A stretch of DNA of 64,000 bases from Escherichia coli (GTDB lineage Bacteria > Pseudomonadota > Gammaproteobacteria > Enterobacterales > Enterobacteriaceae), in NCBI RefSeq assembly GCF_050320075.1, contig NZ_CP190018.1. One strand, given 5' to 3'. The notes under the pieces were generated by a model that had not been told where the DNA came from, did no database searches, and was given only the letters and a program-made list of their open reading frames with translations. The position numbers and the translations under genes were made by a program. This document shows, in pieces, positions 17,496-59,205 of the stretch (positions within the stretch are counted from its first letter, which is position 1; each line of letters starts with the position of its first letter).

Positions 17496-19529
17496 TCACG
17501 CGTCCGGGAACATCACGCTATGGCCCGGCGCTTCACGATGGAGATGGATAAAGTTAAGGTGCCGCTCGTACTGATCGAGAATATCGGTGATCACCTGCTC
17601 TTTGCTGTAGTCCATCAGGTCGTTGCCCTGGCTGCCTTCTAACAGGAAAGTTTCCAGCCGGTAGTAGGTCGATTTACCGCTACGTGCGCGGTAGGTAAAG
17701 CCCGGCACCGAATATTGCTGCGGCCAAATCTGATAGACAAAGTTTTGCTCTTCGCCCATATGCACCAACAAATCCAGATGCCCCAACTGTTGTCCCTCTT
17801 CCGGCGGCAGGCTTTTTAGCTCCACGTACGCGCCGCGCAACCGCAGCTCCTGCGCCACTTCTTCCATTGCCGGGTAACAGACCGTCTCCATCATCTGTTT
17901 AGTGTAACGCGTGCCCGGATAATTCATCAGGCGCGAGAGACGTTTTTTCCAGCTCAGGCGATCCTGAAGCCCCAGCGGTCGCGGCGCGGTATCACGGTTG
18001 GCACTTTCACGGCGGTAATCTTCTACCTTCAGAGATTTATACAACCCCGCCATCACGAAGAAAATCACAAAGCTGAACGGCAGCCCCATGATTACCGTGG
18101 TGTTTTGCAGCGCGGATATCCCGTTGGTCATCAGCATGCCGAGCGTCAGCAGGCCAATCGCCACCGACCAGAAGACGCGCAGCCAGCCGGGGGCGTCGCT
18201 GTTGATATCTTTAAGCTGCGAGGTGAAATTCCCCAGCACCAGCGCCCCGGAGTCCGCCGAGGTCACATAAAACAGCAGGCCAGTAATGGTGGCGACGGAG
18301 GCGCTAAAGGTAAACGCCGGATACTGCGCCAGCAGGCTGTAGAAGCCGCGCTCCGGATGGACCATCGCTTCCTCGGCAAATGCCGCGCCGCCGTGGATGA
18401 TTTCATACAGCGCGCTATTGCCGAACACCGAGAGCCATAACAGCGTGAAGGTAAACGGAATAATCAACGTGCCCAGCACGAACTGGCGAATGGTACGCCC
18501 ACGCGAGATACGCGCCAGGAACAGGCCGACAAACGGCGACCATGCCACCCACCATGCCCAGAAGAAGAGCGTCCAGTTATTCATCCACTCAACCGGACGG
18601 TCGAAGGCAAAACTGTTGAGCGTCATGCCCATAAAGCGATTCACATAGTCGCCAACGTTCAGCACCAGCGCATTAAGCAGGAACGAGGTGTCGCCCATAA
18701 ACAGCACGAACAGGATCAACCCCAGCGCCAGCGCAACGTTGAGTTCCGATAACACGCGAATGCCCTTATCGACACCGGAGGTGACAGAGATCGTGGCGAT
18801 GATCACCGACAAGGCGATCAGTGCCGCTTTCGCCGCCATTGAATCGGGAATATCAAACAGTACGCTCAAGCCATAGTTAAGCTGTACCACACCGATACCG
18901 AGCGTAGTGGCAATACCGAAGATGGTGCCGATTACCGCTGCAATATCCACTGAATGACCAATCGGCCCGTTAATCCGTTTACCGAAGATCGGGTACAGCG
19001 CCGAGCGGATGGTGAGCGGCAAATTATAACGATAGCTAAAGTATCCGAGCGCCATGCCCATCAGCGCATACATCGACCAGCCGGTTAAGCCGTAGTGAAA
19101 CAGCGTCCAGACCATCGCCTGACGCGCAGCCTCAATCGTCTGACCCGCGCCTTCCGGCGGCTGCATATACTGCGTTACCGGTTCGGCTACGGAGAAGAAC
19201 ATCAGGTCGATACCGATCCCGGCAGCAAACAGCATCGCCGCCCAACTCAGCAGACTGAATTCCGGTTTGGATTGTTCTGGCCCGAGCTTCACCGAACCAA
19301 AACGCGAACAAGCGATACAGACCACAAAGACAATATAGAGCGTTGCCGCCAGCAGATAGTACCAACCGAAGGTTTTAGAGACCCAGTCCAGCGTGCGTCC
19401 AATCCACAGGGCCGAGAAGTCGCGAAACAGGATCGTTGTCAGGGAAAACAACAAAATCAGTCCGGCGGAAGTGTAAAACACCACCGGATTGATTTTGTCC
19501 TTTTCCCTGCTGTGTGAAAGGTCTGTCAT
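17496..19529 (-). CDS. betT: Choline transporter BetT (BCCT family), 677 aa
   Basis: BCCT signature WTLFFWAWWVAWSPFVGLFLARISRGRTIR. Full-length match to the BetT I recall. Confidence 0.95.
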   Translation of the reverse strand: MTDLSHSREKDKINPVVFYTSAGLILLFSLTTILFRDFSALWIGRTLDWVSKTFGWYYLLAATLYIVFVVCIACSRFGSVKLGPEQSKPEFSLLSWAAMLFAAGIGIDLMFFSVAEPVTQYMQPPEGAGQTIEAARQAMVWTLFHYGLTGWSMYALMGMALGYFSYRYNLPLTIRSALYPIFGKRINGPIGHSVDIAAVIGTIFGIATTLGIGVVQLNYGLSVLFDIPDSMAAKAALIALSVIIATISVTSGVDKGIRVLSELNVALALGLILFVLFMGDTSFLLNALVLNVGDYVNRFMGMTLNSFAFDRPVEWMNNWTLFFWAWWVAWSPFVGLFLARISRGRTIRQFVLGTLIIPFTFTLLWLSVFGNSALYEIIHGGAAFAEEAMVHPERGFYSLLAQYPAFTFSASVATITGLLFYVTSADSGALVLGNFTSQLKDINSDAPGWLRVFWSVAIGLLTLGMLMTNGISALQNTTVIMGLPFSFVIFFVMAGLYKSLKVEDYRRESANRDTAPRPLGLQDRLSWKKRLSRLMNYPGTRYTKQMMETVCYPAMEEVAQELRLRGAYVELKSLPPEEGQQLGHLDLLVHMGEEQNFVYQIWPQQYSVPGFTYRARSGKSTYYRLETFLLEGSQGNDLMDYSKEQVITDILDQYERHLNFIHLHREAPGHSVMFPDA

Positions 19530-19594
19530 CCAGTATCCCCACTGTTATTGTTACCATTTAAAATCAAATTCGTAACAATTAAGACACATTTTAT

Positions 19595-19612
19595 ATTGAA
19601 CGTCCAATCAAT
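19595..19612. promoter_or_regulatory. Candidate BetI operator ATTGAACGTCCAATCAAT in the betT/betI divergent promoter region
   Basis: ATTGA...TCAAT inverted arms. The reverse complement TTGATTGGACGTTCAAT resembles BetI sites as I remember them. Confidence 0.4.
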
Positions 19613-19657
19613 AACCGCTTTAATAGATAAACAACGCTGATGAATGGAGTGGCGAAA

Positions 19658-20245
19658 ATGCCCAAATTGGGGATGCAGTCGATCCGGCGCAGACAACTGA
19701 TCGACGCCACGCTGGAAGCAATAAATGAAGTGGGCATGCACGATGCAACGATCGCGCAGATCGCCCGCCGTGCAGGCGTTTCTACGGGGATCATCAGCCA
19801 CTATTTCAGGGACAAAAATGGTCTGCTGGAAGCAACCATGCGCGATATCACCAGTCAGCTGCGTGACGCGGTTTTGAATCGATTACATGCACTTCCGCAG
19901 GGCAGTGCAGAGCAGCGATTATAGGCGATTGTTGACGGGAATTTCGATGAAACGCAGGTCAGTAATGCTGCGATGAAAGCCTGGTTGGCGTTTTGGGCCA
20001 GCAGTATGCATCAGCCAATGCTTTACCGTTTGCAGCAGGTGAGCAGCCGCCGCTTGTTGTCGAATCTGGTGAGCGAATTTCACCGCGAGTTACCGCGCCA
20101 ACAGGCACAGGAAGCGGGCTACGGCCTTGCCGCGCTGATTGACGGATTATGGCTGCGCGCGGCACTGAGCGGCAAACCGCTGGATAAACCTCTCGCACAC
20201 TCGCTGACCCGTCACTTTATTACTCAGCATTTACCCACCGATTAA
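19658..20245 (+). pseudogene. betI: betI (TetR-family repressor) with an in-frame TAG at codon 89
   Basis: [50 protein letters not shown]...SAEQRL, then TAG (19922-19924). The same frame continues [24 protein letters not shown]...HLPTD, and the total span is 195 codons, as in BetI. Confidence 0.85.
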
Positions 20246-20258
20246 CCGAGGAGACGTG

Positions 20259-21731
20259 ATGTCCCGAATGGCAGAACAGCAGCTTTATATACATGGTGGT
20301 TATACCTCCGCCACCAGCGGTCGCACCTTCGAGACCATTAACCCGGCCAACGGTAACGTGCTGGCGACCGTGCAGGCCGCCGGGCGTGAGGATGTCGATC
20401 GCGCCGTGAAGAGTGCCCAACAGGGGCAAAAAATCTGGGCGGCGATGACCGCTATGGAACGCTCGCGTATTCTGCGTCGGGCCGTTGATATTCTGCGTGA
20501 ACGCAATAACGAACTCGCAAAACTGGAAACCCTCGACACCGGAAAAGCGTATTCGGAAACCTCAACCGTCGATATCGTTACCGGCGCGGACGTGCTCGAG
20601 TACTACGCCGGGCTGATCCCGTCGCTGGAAGGCAGCCAGATCCCATTGCGTGAGACGTCATTTGTCTATACCCGCCGCGAACCGCTGGGCGTAGTGGCAG
20701 GGATTGGCGCATGGAACTACCCGATCCAGATTGCCCTGTGGAAATCCGCCCCGGCGCTGGCGGCAGGCAATGCAATGATCTTCAAACCGAGCGAAGTCAC
20801 CCCGCTTACCGCGTTAAAGCTGGCTGAAATTTACAGCGAAGCGGGCCTGCCGGACGGTGTATTTAACGTGTTGCCGGGCGTGGGCGCGGAGACCGGGCAA
20901 TATCTGACCGATCATCCGGGCATTGCCAAAGTGTCATTTACCGGCGGTGTCGCCAGCGGCAAAAAAGTGATGGCTAACTCGGCAGCTTCCTCCCTGAAAG
21001 AAGTGACCATGGAACTGGGCGGTAAATCGCCGCTGATCGTTTTCGACGATGCAGATCTCGATCTCGCCGCTGATATCGCCATGATGGCGAACTTCTTCAG
21101 CTCCGGTCAGGTGTGTACCAACGGCACCCGCGTCTTCGTTCCGGCGAAATGCAAAGCCGCATTTGAACAAAAGATTCTGGCGCGCGTTGAGCGCATTCGC
21201 GCGGGCGACGTTTTCGATCCGCAAACTAACTTTGGCCCGCTGGTCAGCTTCCCGCATCGCGATAACGTGCTGCGTTACATCGCCAAAGGCAAAGAGGAAG
21301 GCGCGCGCGTACTGTGCGGCGGCGATGTACTGAAAGGCGATGGCTTCGATAACGGCGCATGGGTTGCACCGACCGTGTTCACCGATTGCCGCGACGAAAT
21401 GACCATCGTGCGCGAAGAGATCTTCGGTCCGGTGATGTCGCTTCTCACTTATGAATCTGAGGACGAAGTGATTCGCCGCGCCAATGATACCGACTACGGC
21501 CTGGCGGCGGGCATCGTGACGGCGGACCTGAACCGCGCGCATCGCGTCATTCATCAGCTGGAAGCGGGTATTTGCTGGATCAACACCTGGGGCGAATCCC
21601 CTGCTGAGATGCCCGTTGGCGGCTACAAACACTCCGGCATTGGTCGCGAGAACGGCGTGATGACGCTCCAGAGTTACACCCAGGTGAAGTCCATCCAGGT
21701 TGAGATGGCTAAATTCCAGTCCATATTCTAA
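20259..21731 (+). CDS. betB: Betaine aldehyde dehydrogenase, 490 aa
   Basis: ALDH motifs [10 protein letters not shown] and [12 protein letters not shown]. Start at MSRMAEQQ. Confidence 0.95.
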
Positions 21732-21744
21732 CCAGGAGGTTTAT

Positions 21745-23415
21745 TTGCAATTTGACTACATCATTATTGGTGCCGGCTCAGCCGGCAACGTTCTCGCTAC
21801 CCGTCTGACTGAAGATCCGAACACAACCGTGCTGCTGCTTGAAGCAGGCGGCCCGGACTATCGCTTTGACTTCCGCACCCAGATGCCCGCCGCGCTGGCA
21901 TTCCCGCTACAGGGTAAACGCTATAACTGGGCCTATGAGACGGAACCGGAACCGTTTATGAACAACCGTCGCATGGAGTGCGGACGCGGTAAGGGGCTTG
22001 GCGGGTCATCACTGATCAACGGCATGTGTTACATCCGTGGTAACGCGCTGGATCTCGATAACTGGGCGCAAGAACCCGGTCTGGAGAACTGGAGTTATCT
22101 CGACTGCCTGCCCTACTACCGCAAGGCCGAGACTCGCGATGTAGGCGAGAACGACTACCACGGTGGCGATGGCCCGGTGAGCGTCACTACCTCCAAACCC
22201 GGCGTCAATCCGCTGTTTGAAGCGATGATTGAAGCGGGCGTGCAGGCAGGCTACCCGCGCACGGACGATCTCAACGGCTATCAGCAGGAAGGTTTTGGCC
22301 CGATGGATCGCACCGTCACGCCGCATGGCCGTCGCGCCAGCACCGCGCGTGGCTATCTCGATCAGGCCAAATCGCGCCCTAACCTGACCATTCGTACTCA
22401 CGCCATGACCGATCACATCATTTTTGACGGCAAACGCGCGGTGGGCGTCGAGTGGCTGGAAGGCGACAGCACCATTCCAACCCGCGCGACAGCGAATAAA
22501 GAGGTGCTGTTATGTGCAGGTGCGATCGCCTCTCCGCAGATCCTGCAACGTTCCGGCGTGGGTAGCGCTGAACTGCTGGCGGAGTTTGATATTCCGCTGG
22601 TGCATGATTTACCCGGCGTCGGCGAAAATCTTCAGGATCACCTGGAGATGTACCTGCAATATGAGTGCAAAGAACCGGTTTCCCTCTACCCTGCCCTGCA
22701 GTGGTGGAATCAGCCGAAAATCGGTGCGGAGTGGCTGTTTGGCGGCACCGGCGTTGGTGCCAGCAACCACTTTGAAGCAGGCGGATTTATTCGCAGCCGT
22801 GAGGAATTTGCGTGGCCGAATATTCAGTACCATTTCCTGCCAGTGGCGATTAACTATAACGGCTCGAACGCAGTGAAAGAGCACGGCTTCCAGTGCCACG
22901 TCGGATCGATGCGCTCGCCAAGCCGTGGGCATGTGCGGATTAAATCCCGCGACCCGCACCAGCATCCAGCGATTCTGTTTAACTACATGTCGCACGAGCA
23001 GGACTGGCAGGAGTTCCGCGACGCAATTCGCATCACCCGCGAGATCATGCATCAACCGGCGCTGGATCAGTATCGTGGCCGCGAAATCAGCCCCGGTGTC
23101 GAATGCCAGACGGATGAGCAGCTCGATGAGTTCGTGCGTAACCACGCCGAAACCGCCTTCCACCCGTGCGGTACCTGCAAAATGGGTTATGACGAGATGG
23201 CAGTGGTTGACGGCGAAGGCCGCGTACACGGGCTGGAAGGCCTGCGCGTGGTGGATGCGTCAATTATGCCGCAGATTATCACCGGCAATTTGAACGCCAC
23301 GACTATTATGATTGGCGAGAAAATGGCGGATATGATTCGCGGGAAGGATGCGTTGCCGAGGAGCACGGCGGGATATTATGTGGCAAATGGGAGGCCGGTG
23401 AGAGCGAAAAAATGA
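21745..23415 (+). CDS. betA: Choline dehydrogenase (GMC oxidoreductase), 556 aa from a TTG start
   Basis: [22 protein letters not shown] fold. The canonical N-terminus MQFDY corresponds to TTG at 21745, 5 nt after AGGAGG (21734-21739). The track's upstream ATG at 21700 lies inside betB. Confidence 0.9.
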
Positions 23416-25232: not shown

Positions 25233-26652
25233 TCTTTTTCTCCTGCGCCTGATGTTTCTTAAACCAACTACGGAAACTCTCTCCGTCAGCTTCAGGAAGA
25301 TCGCGTGCTTCCATCCAGTCGCTAATCGCGCCAAATTTGAGTGGTGTTTTGCCGCCATTGATAAACCAGCTTGCCGCATGAGCGCCGGCCATCATCCCGA
25401 CTTTCCACAATCCTGGATGACTATTGGCATAAGCGAACATTTTTATCGCCCGTTGCTCTGCTTTTGCGGTGATCCCTTTTTCAGCCATCACCCGACGATG
25501 ACGCAAAATCAGTTTTGACAGCGGAATACGCACCGGACACACGCTGTCACAAGCGGTGCATAAAGAGCAGGCGTAGGGTAAATCTTTAAAATCTTTATAG
25601 CCGCCAAGTAGCGGAGAAATCACCGCACCAATTGGCCCTGGATAAATAGAGCCATATCCATGACCGCCAATATGGCGATATGCCGGACAAGTATTCATAC
25701 AAGCCCCGCAGCGAATACAGCGCAGCACATCCCGAAATTCAGAGGCCAGCACCTCAGAACGCCCGTTATCGACAATAACCAGATGAAACTCTTCAGGACC
25801 ATCAACGTGCCCCGCTTCGCGCGGTCCTGTCAGCCAGGTGTTGTATCCCGTCAAACGTGCACCAACGGCACTGCGCGCCAGCATGGTGATCAATACATCT
25901 ACCTCGGCAAACGTGGGGGCAATACGCTCCATTCCCATCACTGCAATATGCGTTTTAGGCAGCGTGGTACACATTCGCGCATTACCTTCATTGGTCACCA
26001 GGCATACCGAACCTGTCTCTGCCACCGCGAAATTACAGCCGGTAATACCTATTTCAGCACTGAGGAAATCTTCGCGGATTTTTTGCCGGATGAATAAGGT
26101 CATTGCTTCAGGCGTTTCCGACCCCTCATAGCCCAGACGTTCGTGTAGCACCCGACGGATCTGATGGCGATCTTTATGAATTGCCGGGACCACAACATGA
26201 GAGGGCGGATCTTGATCCAGCTGGAGAATGTATTCACCCAGATCGGTTTCAATCACCTGAATGCCAGCATCCTGCAACACATGATTGACACCAATCTCTT
26301 CGGTCACCATCGATTTAGATTTCACCACCTTCCGGGCATTTTTGCGTTGGGCAACCTGTAAAATGTAGCGGGTAGCGTCTTCTTTGGTTTTTGCAAAATA
26401 GACGTGACCGCCGTTTTGCGTCACTTTTTCTGAGAGCTGGTACAGATAAGCGTCGAGATTACTCAGAACATGATCACGTATCTGGGCGGCCCGATCGCGC
26501 CACTCCTCCCAGTGCCCCAATTCATCGACCATTTTTTGCCGATTTGCCCCGATACGCTGCTGCGCGTTTGCCACCGCTTTGCGCATGATCGGATCTTCAA
26601 TTTGCTGACGGATGCGTGTCTTAAAATCTGTATTACTGGTTTTGATCGACAT
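25225..26652 (-). CDS. ykgF: LutB-like iron-sulfur protein, 475 aa
   Basis: Two ferredoxin-type clusters, CIRCGACMNTCP and CSLCTACDSVCP. Confidence 0.95.
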   Translation of the reverse strand: MSIKTSNTDFKTRIRQQIEDPIMRKAVANAQQRIGANRQKMVDELGHWEEWRDRAAQIRDHVLSNLDAYLYQLSEKVTQNGGHVYFAKTKEDATRYILQVAQRKNARKVVKSKSMVTEEIGVNHVLQDAGIQVIETDLGEYILQLDQDPPSHVVVPAIHKDRHQIRRVLHERLGYEGSETPEAMTLFIRQKIREDFLSAEIGITGCNFAVAETGSVCLVTNEGNARMCTTLPKTHIAVMGMERIAPTFAEVDVLITMLARSAVGARLTGYNTWLTGPREAGHVDGPEEFHLVIVDNGRSEVLASEFRDVLRCIRCGACMNTCPAYRHIGGHGYGSIYPGPIGAVISPLLGGYKDFKDLPYACSLCTACDSVCPVRIPLSKLILRHRRVMAEKGITAKAEQRAIKMFAYANSHPGLWKVGMMAGAHAASWFINGGKTPLKFGAISDWMEARDLPEADGESFRSWFKKHQAQEKKNG

Positions 26653-45985: not shown

Positions 45986-46035
45986 TTCAAAATTCGACGA
46001 ATTAACGATATTTGTCTGATTAATAATCAGACCGG

Positions 46036-46073
46036 ATTAATGTTGGTGTATTTATTACACCAGCATTAATTTT
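46036..46073 (+). terminator. ykgMO rho-independent terminator
   Basis: A 15-bp stem (one G-U pair) ATTAATGTTGGTGTA/TACACCAGCATTAAT with loop tttat, followed by TTT. Confidence 0.7.
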
Positions 46074-46391
46074 CCTGGGGATGTATCTTCCTGTTCATTT
46101 AAAGTCAACTGCCTGACGTTTCTCTCCGAATATTCCATTATATTAATGTTGACTTGTTGACCAGGTGCGCCCTGTATGCTGGCATCAACTCTCTTTTAGA
46201 CTGAACACGCCACTCAGTTTCCTCCCTTTGCGACGCAGCCTGCATTTACACTCAAACGGTTAAGATGATAAATGTGGTAAATCTGTTGGTACTGACATAA
46301 AAACGTTTACGCCACAGGAACGGCCTGATCCACCGGTAACCCCATCGCCGACGTTCGAGTGCCAGTTAGAGTAACGCGCACAGATGACTGA

Positions 46392-54525: not shown

Positions 54526-54559
54526 GCCCCGCCAGCTATAATCGCGGGGCTTCGTTTTT
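54526..54559 (+). terminator. ykgJ rho-independent terminator
   Basis: GCCCCGC...GCGGGGC stem followed by TTCGTTTTT. Confidence 0.65.
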
Positions 54560-54710
54560 CAGGGATAACAAAACCCGAAACTTCTTCCATCTGCCAGCAA
54601 CAATGCCTCTTCCTCTATAGTGTTCTCCGGATCTACAGCATCCTGAAGTAGCGCGATGTACTCACGGGCTATCTGCTTCAGAAAGTAAAAAGCAATGTTT
54701 TTAACCTATA

Positions 54711-54737
54711 AAAATGGCGCTGCATTTGCGCCATTTT
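54711..54737 (-). terminator. yagU terminator (symmetric A/T-flanked hairpin)
   Basis: A 10-bp stem AAAATGGCGC/GCGCCATTTT with a 7-nt loop, starting 15 nt past the yagU stop. Confidence 0.6.
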
Positions 54738-54751
54738 TATTATTCAATGCA

Positions 54752-55771: not shown

Positions 55772-56461
55772 ATGAGCAACCAAGGCGAATACCCCGAAGA
55801 TAATCGGGTTGGGAAGCACGAGCCGCACGATTTTAGTTTGACCCGTCGCGATCTGATTAAAGTCAGCGCCGCAACGGCGGCGACCGCCGTGGTTTATCCT
55901 CATTCTACGCTTGCGGCAAGCGTTCCGGCAGCTACACCCGCGCCAGAGATAATGCCCCTGACACTTAAGGTGAACGGCAAAACCGAGCAGTTGGACGTTG
56001 ATACCCGAACCACGCTACTGGACGCTTTGCGTGAAAATCTGCATCTGATCGGTACCAAGAAAGGTTGCGATCACGGACAGTGCGGAGCCTGTACCGTGCT
56101 GGTCAATGGTCGAAGGCTTAATGCCTGCCTGACGCTTGCAGTCATGCATCAGGGGGCCGAGATCACCACCATTGAAGGCCTGGGTTCACCAGAGAATCTT
56201 CACCCCATGCAGGCGGCCTTTATCAAGCATGATGGCTTCCAGTGCGGCTACTGCACCTCCGGGCAAATTTGCTCATCAGTAGCGGTGCTAAAAGAGATTC
56301 AGGACGGCATTCCCAGTCACGTCACGGTCGATTTGGTTTCCCCTCCAGAAAGAACGGCCGATGAGATCCGTGAACGTATGAGCGGCAACATCTGTCGCTG
56401 TGGTGCATACGCTAACATCCTTGCCGCCATTGAAGACGCTGCGGGGGAGATAAAATCATGA
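55772..56461 (+). CDS. paoA: Periplasmic aldehyde oxidoreductase 2Fe-2S subunit with Tat signal, 229 aa
   Basis: Tat motif LTRRDLIK. Cluster motifs [11 protein letters not shown] and CGYCTSGQ. Confidence 0.95.
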
Positions 56462-59205
56462 AGGCGTTTACCTATGAACGTGTGAACACCCCGGCCGAGG
56501 CGGCACTTAGCGCTCAGCGCGTACCTGGCGCAAAATTTATCGCTGGCGGGACCAATCTGCTGGACCTGATGAAGCTGGAAATTGAAACGCCAACCCACCT
56601 TATCGATGTGAACGGGCTCGGGCTCGATAAGATTGAAGTGACCGACGCGGGTGGGCTGCGCATCGGCGCACTGGTACGGAACACCGACCTGGCGGCTCAC
56701 GAGCGCGTGCGTCGTGATTACGCGGTACTCTCCCGCGCCCTGCTCGCTGGCGCGTCTGGTCAGTTACGCAATCAGGCAACCACCGCAGGTAATCTGCTCC
56801 AGCGCACGCGCTGCCCCTATTTTTACGACACCAATCAGCCCTGCAATAAGCGCCTGCCCGGGAGCGGCTGCGCGGCACTTGAAGGCTTTAGCCGTCAGCA
56901 CGCGGTGGTAGGCGTAAGCGAAGCCTGCATTGCCACCCATCCGAGCGATATGGCGGTCGCAATGCGGTTGCTGGATGCGGTGGTGGAAACCATCACGCCG
57001 GAGGGAAAGACTCGCAGTATCACACTGGCTGATTTTTATCACCCTCCGGGAAAAACGCCGCACATTGAAACCGCCCTGCTTCCCGGTGAGCTTATCGTTG
57101 CGGTGACGTTACCTCCGCCGCTCGGCGGAAAACATATCTACCGCAAGGTGCGCGATCGCGCCTCCTACGCCTTTGCCCTGGTATCGGTCGCGGCGATTAT
57201 TCAGCCTGACGGCAGCGGGCGCGTCGCGCTGGGCGTACTGGCTGTCATTACCGCCAGTAACGCCGGGGCACTCGGCAAAGGCGACAAAAACACCGCCAGG
57301 CTGTTAGGCGGCCCCACTATTGAACACTATCATCAGGCCATTGCGCTGGTAGTGGCCGAGACCTTCGAACAGGCGCGAGCGGCGGCCTCGCTGGTGCAGG
57401 CGCACTATCGCCGTAATAAAGGAGCTTACTCCCTGGCGGACGAGAAACAGGCCGTCAGTCAGCCGCCGGAAGACACGCCCGATAAAAATGTTGGTGACTT
57501 TGACGGGGCTTTCACCTCCGCTGCGGTGAAGATTGATGCTACCTACACGACCCCGGACCAGAGCCATATGGCGATGGAGCCGCATGCCTCGATGGCCGTC
57601 TGGGATGGAAATAAGCTTACCCTCTGGACCTCAAATCAGATGATTGACTGGTGCCGCACCGATCTGGCAAAAACGCTGAAAGTGCCCGTGGAGAATGTGC
57701 GTATTATCTCCCCGTATATCGGCGGAGGGTTTGGCGGCAAGCTGTTCCTGAGAAGCGATGCGCTGCTGGCGGCCCTCGCCGCCCGTGCGGTGAAACGTCC
57801 GGTTAAAGTGATGCTCCCCCGCCCCACTATTCCCAATAACACCACGCACCGCCCCGCCACCCTTCAGCACTTGCGTATCGGTACTGACCAGAGCGGGAAA
57901 ATCACCGCTATCTCACATGAAAGCTGGTCCGGAAACCTGCCCGGCGGCACGCCGGAAACGGCGGTACAGCAAAGCGAATTTCTTTACGCAGGGGCGAATC
58001 GTCATACCGGCCTGCGGCTCGCCATGCTTGATTTGCCGGAAGGGAACGCCATGCGTGCGCCCGGCGAAGCCCCCGGTCTGATGGCGCTCGAAATCGCGAT
58101 CGATGAACTGGCGGAAAAAGCGGGCATCGATCCCGTCGAGTTTCGCATCCTGAATGACACTCAGGTTGACCCCGCCGATCCGACGCGCCGCTTCTCTCGC
58201 CGTCAGCTTATCGAGTGCTTGCGCACCGGAGCGGATAAATTTGGCTGGAAGCAGCGCAACGCCACACCCGGACAGGTACGCGACGGGGAGTGGCTAGTCG
58301 GCCACGGTGTTGCGGCGGGCTTTCGCAATAATCTGCTGGAAAAATCGGGTGCGTGGGTTCACCTGGAGCAAAACGGCACCGTTACCGTGGAAACGGACAT
58401 GACCGATATTGGCACTGGCAGCTACACCATTCTGGCCCAGACGGCAGCGGAAATGCTTGGCGTACCGCTGGAGCAGGTTGCGGTTCACCTCGGCGATTCC
58501 AGTTTCCCGGTTTCTGCGGGGTCTGGTGGACAATGGGGCGCGAATACCTCCACCTCCGGCGTTTACGCCGCCTGTGTGAAGCTTCGCGAAATGATTGCCT
58601 CGGCAGTCGGGTTTGATCCTGAGCAGTCGCAGTTTGCCGACGGCAAGATTACCAACGGTACCCGAAGCGCCACGCTACATGAGGCCACCGCAGGCGGCAG
58701 ACTGACAGCGGAAGAGAGCATTGAATTCGGAATACTGAGCAAGGAGTACCAGCAATCGACCTTTGCCGGGCATTTTGTGGAGGTCGGCGTGCATAGCGCG
58801 ACGGGAGAAGTTCGGGTCCGGCGTATGCTCGCCGTGTGCGCAGCGGGGCGCATTCTGAATCCGAAAACTGCACGCAGCCAGGTCATTGGCGCGATGACTA
58901 TGGGCATGGGCGCGGCACTGATGGAGGAGCTGGCGGTAGATGACCGTTTGGGCTACTTCGTTAATCACGATATGGCGGGGTATGAAGTGCCGGTTCATGC
59001 GGATATCCCAAAACAGGAGGTGATTTTCCTGGATGATACCGACCCCATCTCCTCCCCGATGAAGGCCAAAGGTGTCGGTGAGCTGGGCCTGTGCGGCGTG
59101 AGCGCGGCTATCGCCAACGCGGTGTATAACGCCACCGGTATTCGGGTACGGGATTATCCCATCACTCTGGATAAGCTGCTCGATAAGCTGCCGGATGTGG
59201 TTTAA
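56458..59205 (+). CDS. paoB/paoC: Single 915-aa ORF: PaoB (FAD subunit) N-terminal ~259 aa fused in frame to PaoC (molybdopterin subunit) lacking its N-terminus
   Basis: It begins [15 protein letters not shown]...[14 protein letters not shown] (PaoB). It switches at ...[22 protein letters not shown]... (nt ~57232-57237) and ends ...[14 protein letters not shown] (PaoC C-terminus). Confidence 0.8.

Follow-up and report, generated by a model that had tools for sequence, protein, structure and literature searches.

Premature amber codon in betI of Escherichia coli, a probable loss-of-function allele predicted to release the bet genes from choline-dependent repression

The bet genes of E. coli are found together in the DNA analysed here, a stretch of 64,000 nucleotides referred to below as the window (contig NZ_CP190018.1 of assembly GCF_050320075.1). 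The gene for the choline transporter BetT, a BCCT-type protein of 677 amino acids, is intact on the minus strand at 17496-19529 according to both the open reading frame (ORF) list and RefSeq, and its product (WP_000131044.1) is common to the close relatives that have CAG at codon 89 of betI. Divergent from betT on the plus strand are betI (19658-20245), betB, which encodes betaine-aldehyde dehydrogenase (20259-21731), and betA, which encodes choline dehydrogenase (21745-23415, obtained by adding 15657 to the locus coordinates). This order matches the usual context of BetI genes. Both betB and betA are intact, and their products (WP_000089106.1 and WP_001159140.1, respectively) are those of the CAG relatives. 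A Shine-Dalgarno sequence, GAGGAG (20248-20253, plus strand), is located 5 nt 5' of the betB ATG at 20259, and betB begins 14 nt past the betI stop, as the initial annotation of this DNA had stated.

The intergenic control region between betT and betI (19530-19657) contains the inverted repeat TATTGA-N8-TCAATA at 19594-19613, which is the putative operator. The initial annotation described an intact putative operator at 19595-19612, and the repeat is indeed present and the same as in the CAG relatives; the whole control region is without any difference from the CAG strains 746, MS14384 and CE2050. Genomic SELEX has indicated that BetI binds a single genomic target, the betI-betT spacer (PMC5934670), and BetI represses bet transcription when choline is absent (PMC11007814). 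Shimada et al. reported that choline-bound BetI remains on its operator (PMC5934670). An Rfam scan found nothing near the bet genes, and the only match at gathering score in the window is IS009 (RF02111) at 54546-54746 on the minus strand (187.8 bits), in the yagU-ykgJ area.

Direct translation of betI identifies TAG at 19922-19924 as codon 89 of the gene. The codon is preceded by 88 sense codons (MPKLG...GSAEQRL) and followed by 106 in-frame sense codons that run to ...HLPTD and end with TAA at 20243-20245. The gene comprises 195 codons plus the stop, and apart from the amber codon is the same as intact alleles. An in-frame amber codon within a 195-codon frame is what the initial annotation had proposed, and the translation agrees with it exactly. 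That the codon derives from CAG by a single C-to-T change (Q89*) is likewise borne out, given that the nearest relatives (746, MS14384 and CE2050) have CAG; the alignment with other E. coli betI genes that had been suggested as a check also gives CAG in strains 7/2 and AMSHJX01. Compared with BetI of K-12, the gene is the same in identity, in its position between betT and betB-betA and in its 195 codons, but differs in having TAG rather than CAG at codon 89, with only the N-terminal 88 residues able to be made.

Repaired at codon 89, the 195-residue protein scores 306.2 bits against the NF001978 profile (cut-off 118) and 265.3 bits against TIGR03384 (cut-off 201.3), covers profile positions 1-193 of 197, and has an exact match on more than 1,000 contigs in the protein collection. 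Both halves of the interrupted gene match these BetI equivalog models, in their N- and C-terminal parts respectively. The scores of the repaired protein fix the identity of the gene rather than the integrity of its product. The 88-residue product alone reaches 118.2 bits against TIGR03384, which is under the cut-off, and 135.7 bits against NF001978, which is over it. An uninterrupted frame that joins the TetR_N domain to a C-terminal ligand-binding and dimerisation domain is absent in betI. Pfam instead places TetR_N on the 88-residue ORF (19658-19924 with its stop, plus strand) and TetR_C_6 on a leftover in-frame ORF of 90 residues that starts at Met106 (19973-20245, plus strand). No Shine-Dalgarno sequence was seen upstream of the in-frame ATG at 19973 on reading the sequence, which suggests that the 90-residue ORF is probably unexpressed, and any product from this ATG would miss residues 89-105.

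The extent of the loss can be judged from an AlphaFold2 model of intact BetI (27 sequences, mean pLDDT 85, pTM 0.80), which consists of nine helices (residues 8-25, 32-39, 43-50, 53-77, 84-95, 103-116, 120-141, 147-171 and 177-191). Residue 89 falls within helix 5, so that the 88-residue ORF covers the first four helices and five residues at the start of the fifth. TetR-family proteins use helices 5-7 for the ligand pocket and helices 8-9 for the dimer interface, and they bind palindromic operators as dimers held together by the last helices. On this model the truncated product is predicted to retain the three-helix DNA-binding unit plus helix 4 and to lose the ligand-binding core and the dimerisation helices; the modelled helices and the Pfam split agree with the initial annotation, which had the helix-turn-helix (HTH) kept and the ligand-binding and dimerisation domain lost. 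Position 89 itself is variable; an alignment of 27 orthologues shows Q, R, S, C, E or L there. Many residues past the stop are invariant among BetI proteins of the Enterobacterales, including I91, V92, G94-D97, W109, F112, W113, D162, G163, W165 and L166. The PDB holds no solved structure of E. coli BetI, the best match being 3e7q (E = 8e-16), an entry that also served as a template in published BetI engineering (PMC11007814).

The window is the DNA of the YZLc1-3 chromosome (NZ_CP123240.1), from chicken faeces in Yangzhou, China, with 0 differences over 8,588 nt and 100% identity over 24,755 nt; window position p corresponds to position 3895581 + p in that record. The NCBI pipeline PGAP had already flagged betI of this chromosome as a pseudogene with an "internal stop". 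Among 5,426 complete E. coli genomes, betI is found in 5,177, and a query with a 55-mer centred on the T, in which every 28-nt megablast seed must include the T, detected the T allele in three: YZLc1-3, Ec-U3 (human urine, Burkina Faso) and 19AR0254 (midstream urine, New Zealand). The "internal stop" annotation is attached to betI in all three. In a collection of 15 billion proteins, the exact 88-residue product is present on 145 contigs (NCBI, ENA and Logan) and the 90-residue remnant ORF, in the form seen in the window, on 117. The 88-residue product occurs in 191 blocks of the contig index, a window-type neighbourhood surrounds it in 20 of the 24 longest contigs examined, and one NCBI draft (GCA_032675585.1) equals the window over 6,267 nt.

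The presence of TAG in other E. coli had been named by the initial annotation as an observation that would speak against its reading, and two further complete genomes and many drafts do carry it. These carriers do not refute loss of function because the allele is rare and heritable; at 3 of the 5,177 betI-bearing complete genomes, TAG has the distribution of a rare inherited allele and not that of a codon normally decoded as sense. It is hardly credible that the true base is C, with betI intact and the T a sequencing or assembly artefact. Long-read assemblies do carry single-base errors, but three complete assemblies, produced by different laboratories on different continents, agree on the T, the exact truncated protein recurs on the 145 contigs from NCBI, ENA and Logan, and the T co-segregates with the four SNPs and the indel that define a subclade (see below).

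Two of the contigs that were compared with the window depart from it within the bet locus. In an ENA metagenome scaffold with the TAG allele (L014), an indel splits betB into ORFs of 239 and 266 amino acids (3602-5075 of the scaffold), which may be either a further lesion in the pathway or an artefact of assembly. Contig L013 departs from the window at 19 clustered sites, mainly within betB (window position 21374 onward), a pattern that suggests a recombined patch.

The history of the allele was traced by comparing 50 kb of the window with the close relatives 746 (dog, Scotland), MS14384 (human blood), CE2050 (silver gull, Australia) and Ec-U3. The window and Ec-U3 have in common the T at 19922, SNPs at 25530, 36310, 40485 and 45698, and a 6-bp indel at 56613-56618, whereas 746, MS14384 and CE2050 agree with one another at these sites and all have CAG at codon 89. 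Over the 50 kb, Ec-U3 has six private SNPs and the window has none. Because the CAG relatives agree at the sites that define the subclade, the comparison shows TAG to be the derived state, with a single origin of the stop on the branch leading to the YZLc1-3/Ec-U3 subclade.

Several other features of the window and its relatives were noted. An IS150 element (IS3 family) at 4261-5630 splits a gene for an autoinducer-2-type ABC transporter substrate-binding protein into two fragments (3416-5849). At about 56458-59200, the annotation gives paoB and paoC as partial genes lying end to end in the window, 746, MS14384, CE2050 and Ec-U3, which suggests an internal deletion that fused the two; the 6-bp indel that separates the TAG subclade from the CAG relatives sits inside the paoB remnant. 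ykgL (about 46020-46245) carries a frameshift, according to the annotation, in every member of the clone that was examined and is intact in 19AR0254. Ec-U3 carries an IS1A copy between pdeL and betT (equivalent to window position of about 17068) that is not in the window and that, being downstream of betT, is unlikely to affect bet expression.

19AR0254 belongs to a different background. Its flanks share only 95-97% identity with the window, ehaA and an ipbA/hyx island are present at its locus, and its betI is a very common allele changed by one base; relative to the CAG strain AMSHJX01, 19AR0254 is the same over 10.4 kb but for the C-to-T change in betI. The haplotype of 19AR0254 is found exactly in the Logan assembly SRR35395840. 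Differences between 19AR0254 and the window lie on both sides of the stop, at 19570 and 19711 before it and from 19935 onward after it. Import of TAG by recombination was considered and set aside, as the markers at 19711 and 19935 are both of the recipient type and an imported tract would have to be shorter than 224 bp. Unless so short a tract was imported, the flanking markers indicate that the same C-to-T change happened independently in 19AR0254. Beyond the region of identity, dense mismatches between AMSHJX01 and 19AR0254 (L010 and L009) begin at position 10412 of L010, just past ipbA, which encodes a FimX-type invertase, in the ipbA/hyxR region; this zone would fit an invertible segment present in opposite orientations.

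A mutational hotspot at codon 89 was likewise rejected as an account of the repeated change, since the codon is outside any CCWGG Dcm site and several other independent truncations of betI are known. The gene has 63 one-step routes to a nonsense codon, 23 of which are transitions, and codon 89 is among these 23. Given these other truncations, two independent changes at codon 89 need no special mechanism. The truncations, which come from E. coli and Shigella and fall in the same protein cluster, include Q126* in Shigella dysenteriae (P0003; 42 contigs) and E98* (P0015; 14 contigs). Two more are frameshifts, one after Q86 that a 5-bp GCAGA duplication would account for (P0014; 50 contigs) and one after R87 that fits insertion of a single T (P0007). 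Like Q89*, they cut the protein after the DNA-binding domain within a bet locus, but they differ in site and type of mutation. Q89*, with its 145 contigs and at least two origins, is the most widely seen of the betI truncations examined.

The C-to-T change at 19922 also alters the opposite strand, where it turns TGTAAT of the CAG allele into the consensus -10 hexamer TATAAT (19923-19918). Together with TCGAAA as the -35 element and an 18-nt spacer, this makes a promoter-like site by consensus match (19918-19947, minus strand) that faces betT and is antisense to the 5' half of betI. The scan does not find it in the CAG strain 746, and in 19AR0254, which has a different -35, it falls below the threshold. 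One could imagine that the change was selected because it gave rise to a new minus-strand transcript towards betT that is independent of BetI, with truncation of BetI incidental. The site has 10 of 12 consensus matches and is confined to the TAG allele as found in the window lineage, and the mutation supplies the A of the -10 hexamer at its critical second position. Even so, this account is quite improbable. Consensus matches in the region are not above those in shuffled sequence (2 versus 1.1 +/- 1.1), the match at the -35 is poor, the spacer measures 18 nt, and natural truncations of betI at other sites suggest that loss of BetI is the common outcome. Creation of a promoter, moreover, does not explain the recurrence of the allele since the independent TAG lineage, with its even weaker -35, fails the scan.

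The consequences of the stop depend on whether it is obeyed. Some coliforms from nature are reported to carry amber suppressors, and the tolerance of position 89 for Q, R, S, C, E and L implies that any inserted residue would probably work, and so readthrough or suppression could in principle supply enough full-length BetI for near-normal regulation. Basal readthrough of UAG in E. coli is very low, however, and the 64-kb window contains no tRNA gene. A query for supE centred on the anticodon change matched 158 genomes, among them the built-in positive controls C600, DH5alpha, J53 and DH1, and a joint query with the supE 55-mer and the TAG 55-mer returned 161 records, none of them with a second matching place in the same genome; a supE-type tRNA-Gln(CUA) (glnV/glnX) is present in none of YZLc1-3, Ec-U3 and 19AR0254. 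This covers one suppressor gene type, supE, of the search for amber suppressors that the initial annotation had recommended. Programmed recoding, for which a stop conserved across lineages would be expected, is not indicated by a stop found in so few betI-bearing genomes, and neither TAG lineage has close relatives that carry the stop outside the lineage itself. Rescue of BetI by suppression or readthrough is accordingly very improbable.

Taken with the genomic evidence, these observations favour reading betI of the window as a young Q89* loss-of-function allele in which choline-dependent repression of betT and betIBA is lost, a reading to which we assign a probability of about 0.85. Translation would stop after residue 88, and the resulting product, which is expected to be unable to dimerise because it is missing the C-terminal pair of helices along with the ligand-binding core, would not form a dimer on the palindromic site between betT and betI. 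The betT and betI-betB-betA transcripts would then be freed from choline-dependent repression, while control by osmolarity and by oxygen through ArcA, which is separate from BetI, would stay. Osmotic control of the bet genes was reportedly found to be independent of BetI by Lamark et al. in 1996. Three later papers that cite this work describe oxygen (ArcA) and osmotic stress as acting on bet expression separately from choline and BetI (PMC5727454, PMC5934670, PMC7927397). Because of these separate inputs, loss of BetI would remove the dependence on choline and not confer full constitutivity; the 'de-repressed, choline-independent' of the initial annotation is a reasonable description of the predicted expression, but 'constitutive' is too strong. 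Retention of choline-bound BetI at the operator, as reported by Shimada et al., implies that induction is not a matter of simple release, and the size of the derepression in a null mutant cannot be read from sequence.

It is conceivable that the fragment itself represses. An isolated TetR N-terminal domain might retain weak affinity for DNA, and the 88-residue product, alone or with the separately translated 90-residue C-terminal fragment, would then act as a weak repressor that is non-inducible because the choline pocket is gone. The HTH and helix 4 are complete in the model, the fragment clears the NF001978 cut-off, its mRNA would be abundant without autorepression, and an in-frame ORF with an ATG spans residues 106-195. 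We consider this improbable, given that the last helices, which hold TetR-family dimers together, are absent, that residues 89-105, with the invariant I91, V92 and G94-D97, would be missing from any two-piece assembly, that the ATG at 19973 is without a Shine-Dalgarno sequence, and that truncated proteins are usually degraded.

Under loss of BetI function, the output of betB and betA need not rise in proportion to their transcript. The 334 nt before betB would go untranslated, and BetB and BetA levels might be somewhat reduced relative to the mRNA. The untranslated stretch is richer in G than in C up to its last ~100 nt (20148-20255), which are 35% C and 15-19% G, and a strong early rut site is not evident in it from base composition. 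Rho-dependent polarity on betB is possible and, as no early Rho-loading site is evident, would probably be modest. Folding has the betB ribosome-binding site partly paired in naked mRNA, so that translational coupling may also be lost in part, and the net change in BetB and BetA output is uncertain. The folding and the base-composition reading are both predictions made without controls.

Loss of a local repressor through a premature stop is a familiar event in the TetR family. Loss-of-function stops in acrR and envR are well documented in natural isolates of the Enterobacterales, and betI stops are not reported in that survey (PMC6790063). As with betI, premature stops in acrR, envR and ramR derepress the adjacent operon and recur in natural isolates; the difference is that those repressors govern efflux pumps under antibiotic selection, whereas betI governs an osmoprotectant pathway. 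Our literature searches returned no description of a natural betI nonsense allele and nothing on strain YZLc1-3. It is possible that Q89* is a recurrent adaptive mutation, not neutral decay, which leaves betT, betB and betA intact, primes the synthesis of glycine betaine independently of choline and is favoured in niches of high osmolarity that contain choline, for which urine and the gut of poultry are candidates. Of the three complete TAG genomes, two come from urine, and the allele arose at least twice and is in at least 145 assemblies on several continents, all of which fits such a reading, though we regard it as unlikely. On the same reading, the base change may also give the window lineage a new promoter directed at betT. 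Q89* is an ordinary strain-level pseudogene, an event of a known kind that was already flagged publicly.

While the allele bears on no open question of gene regulation, it is a clean natural knockout of a repressor with a single target, and the wild-type relatives 746, MS14384 and CE2050 differ from the window at few sites over the 50 kb that were compared. Together they offer a ready strain pair for asking what role BetI has beyond the sensing of choline and what value constitutive uptake and oxidation of choline would have for E. coli in urine and in birds.
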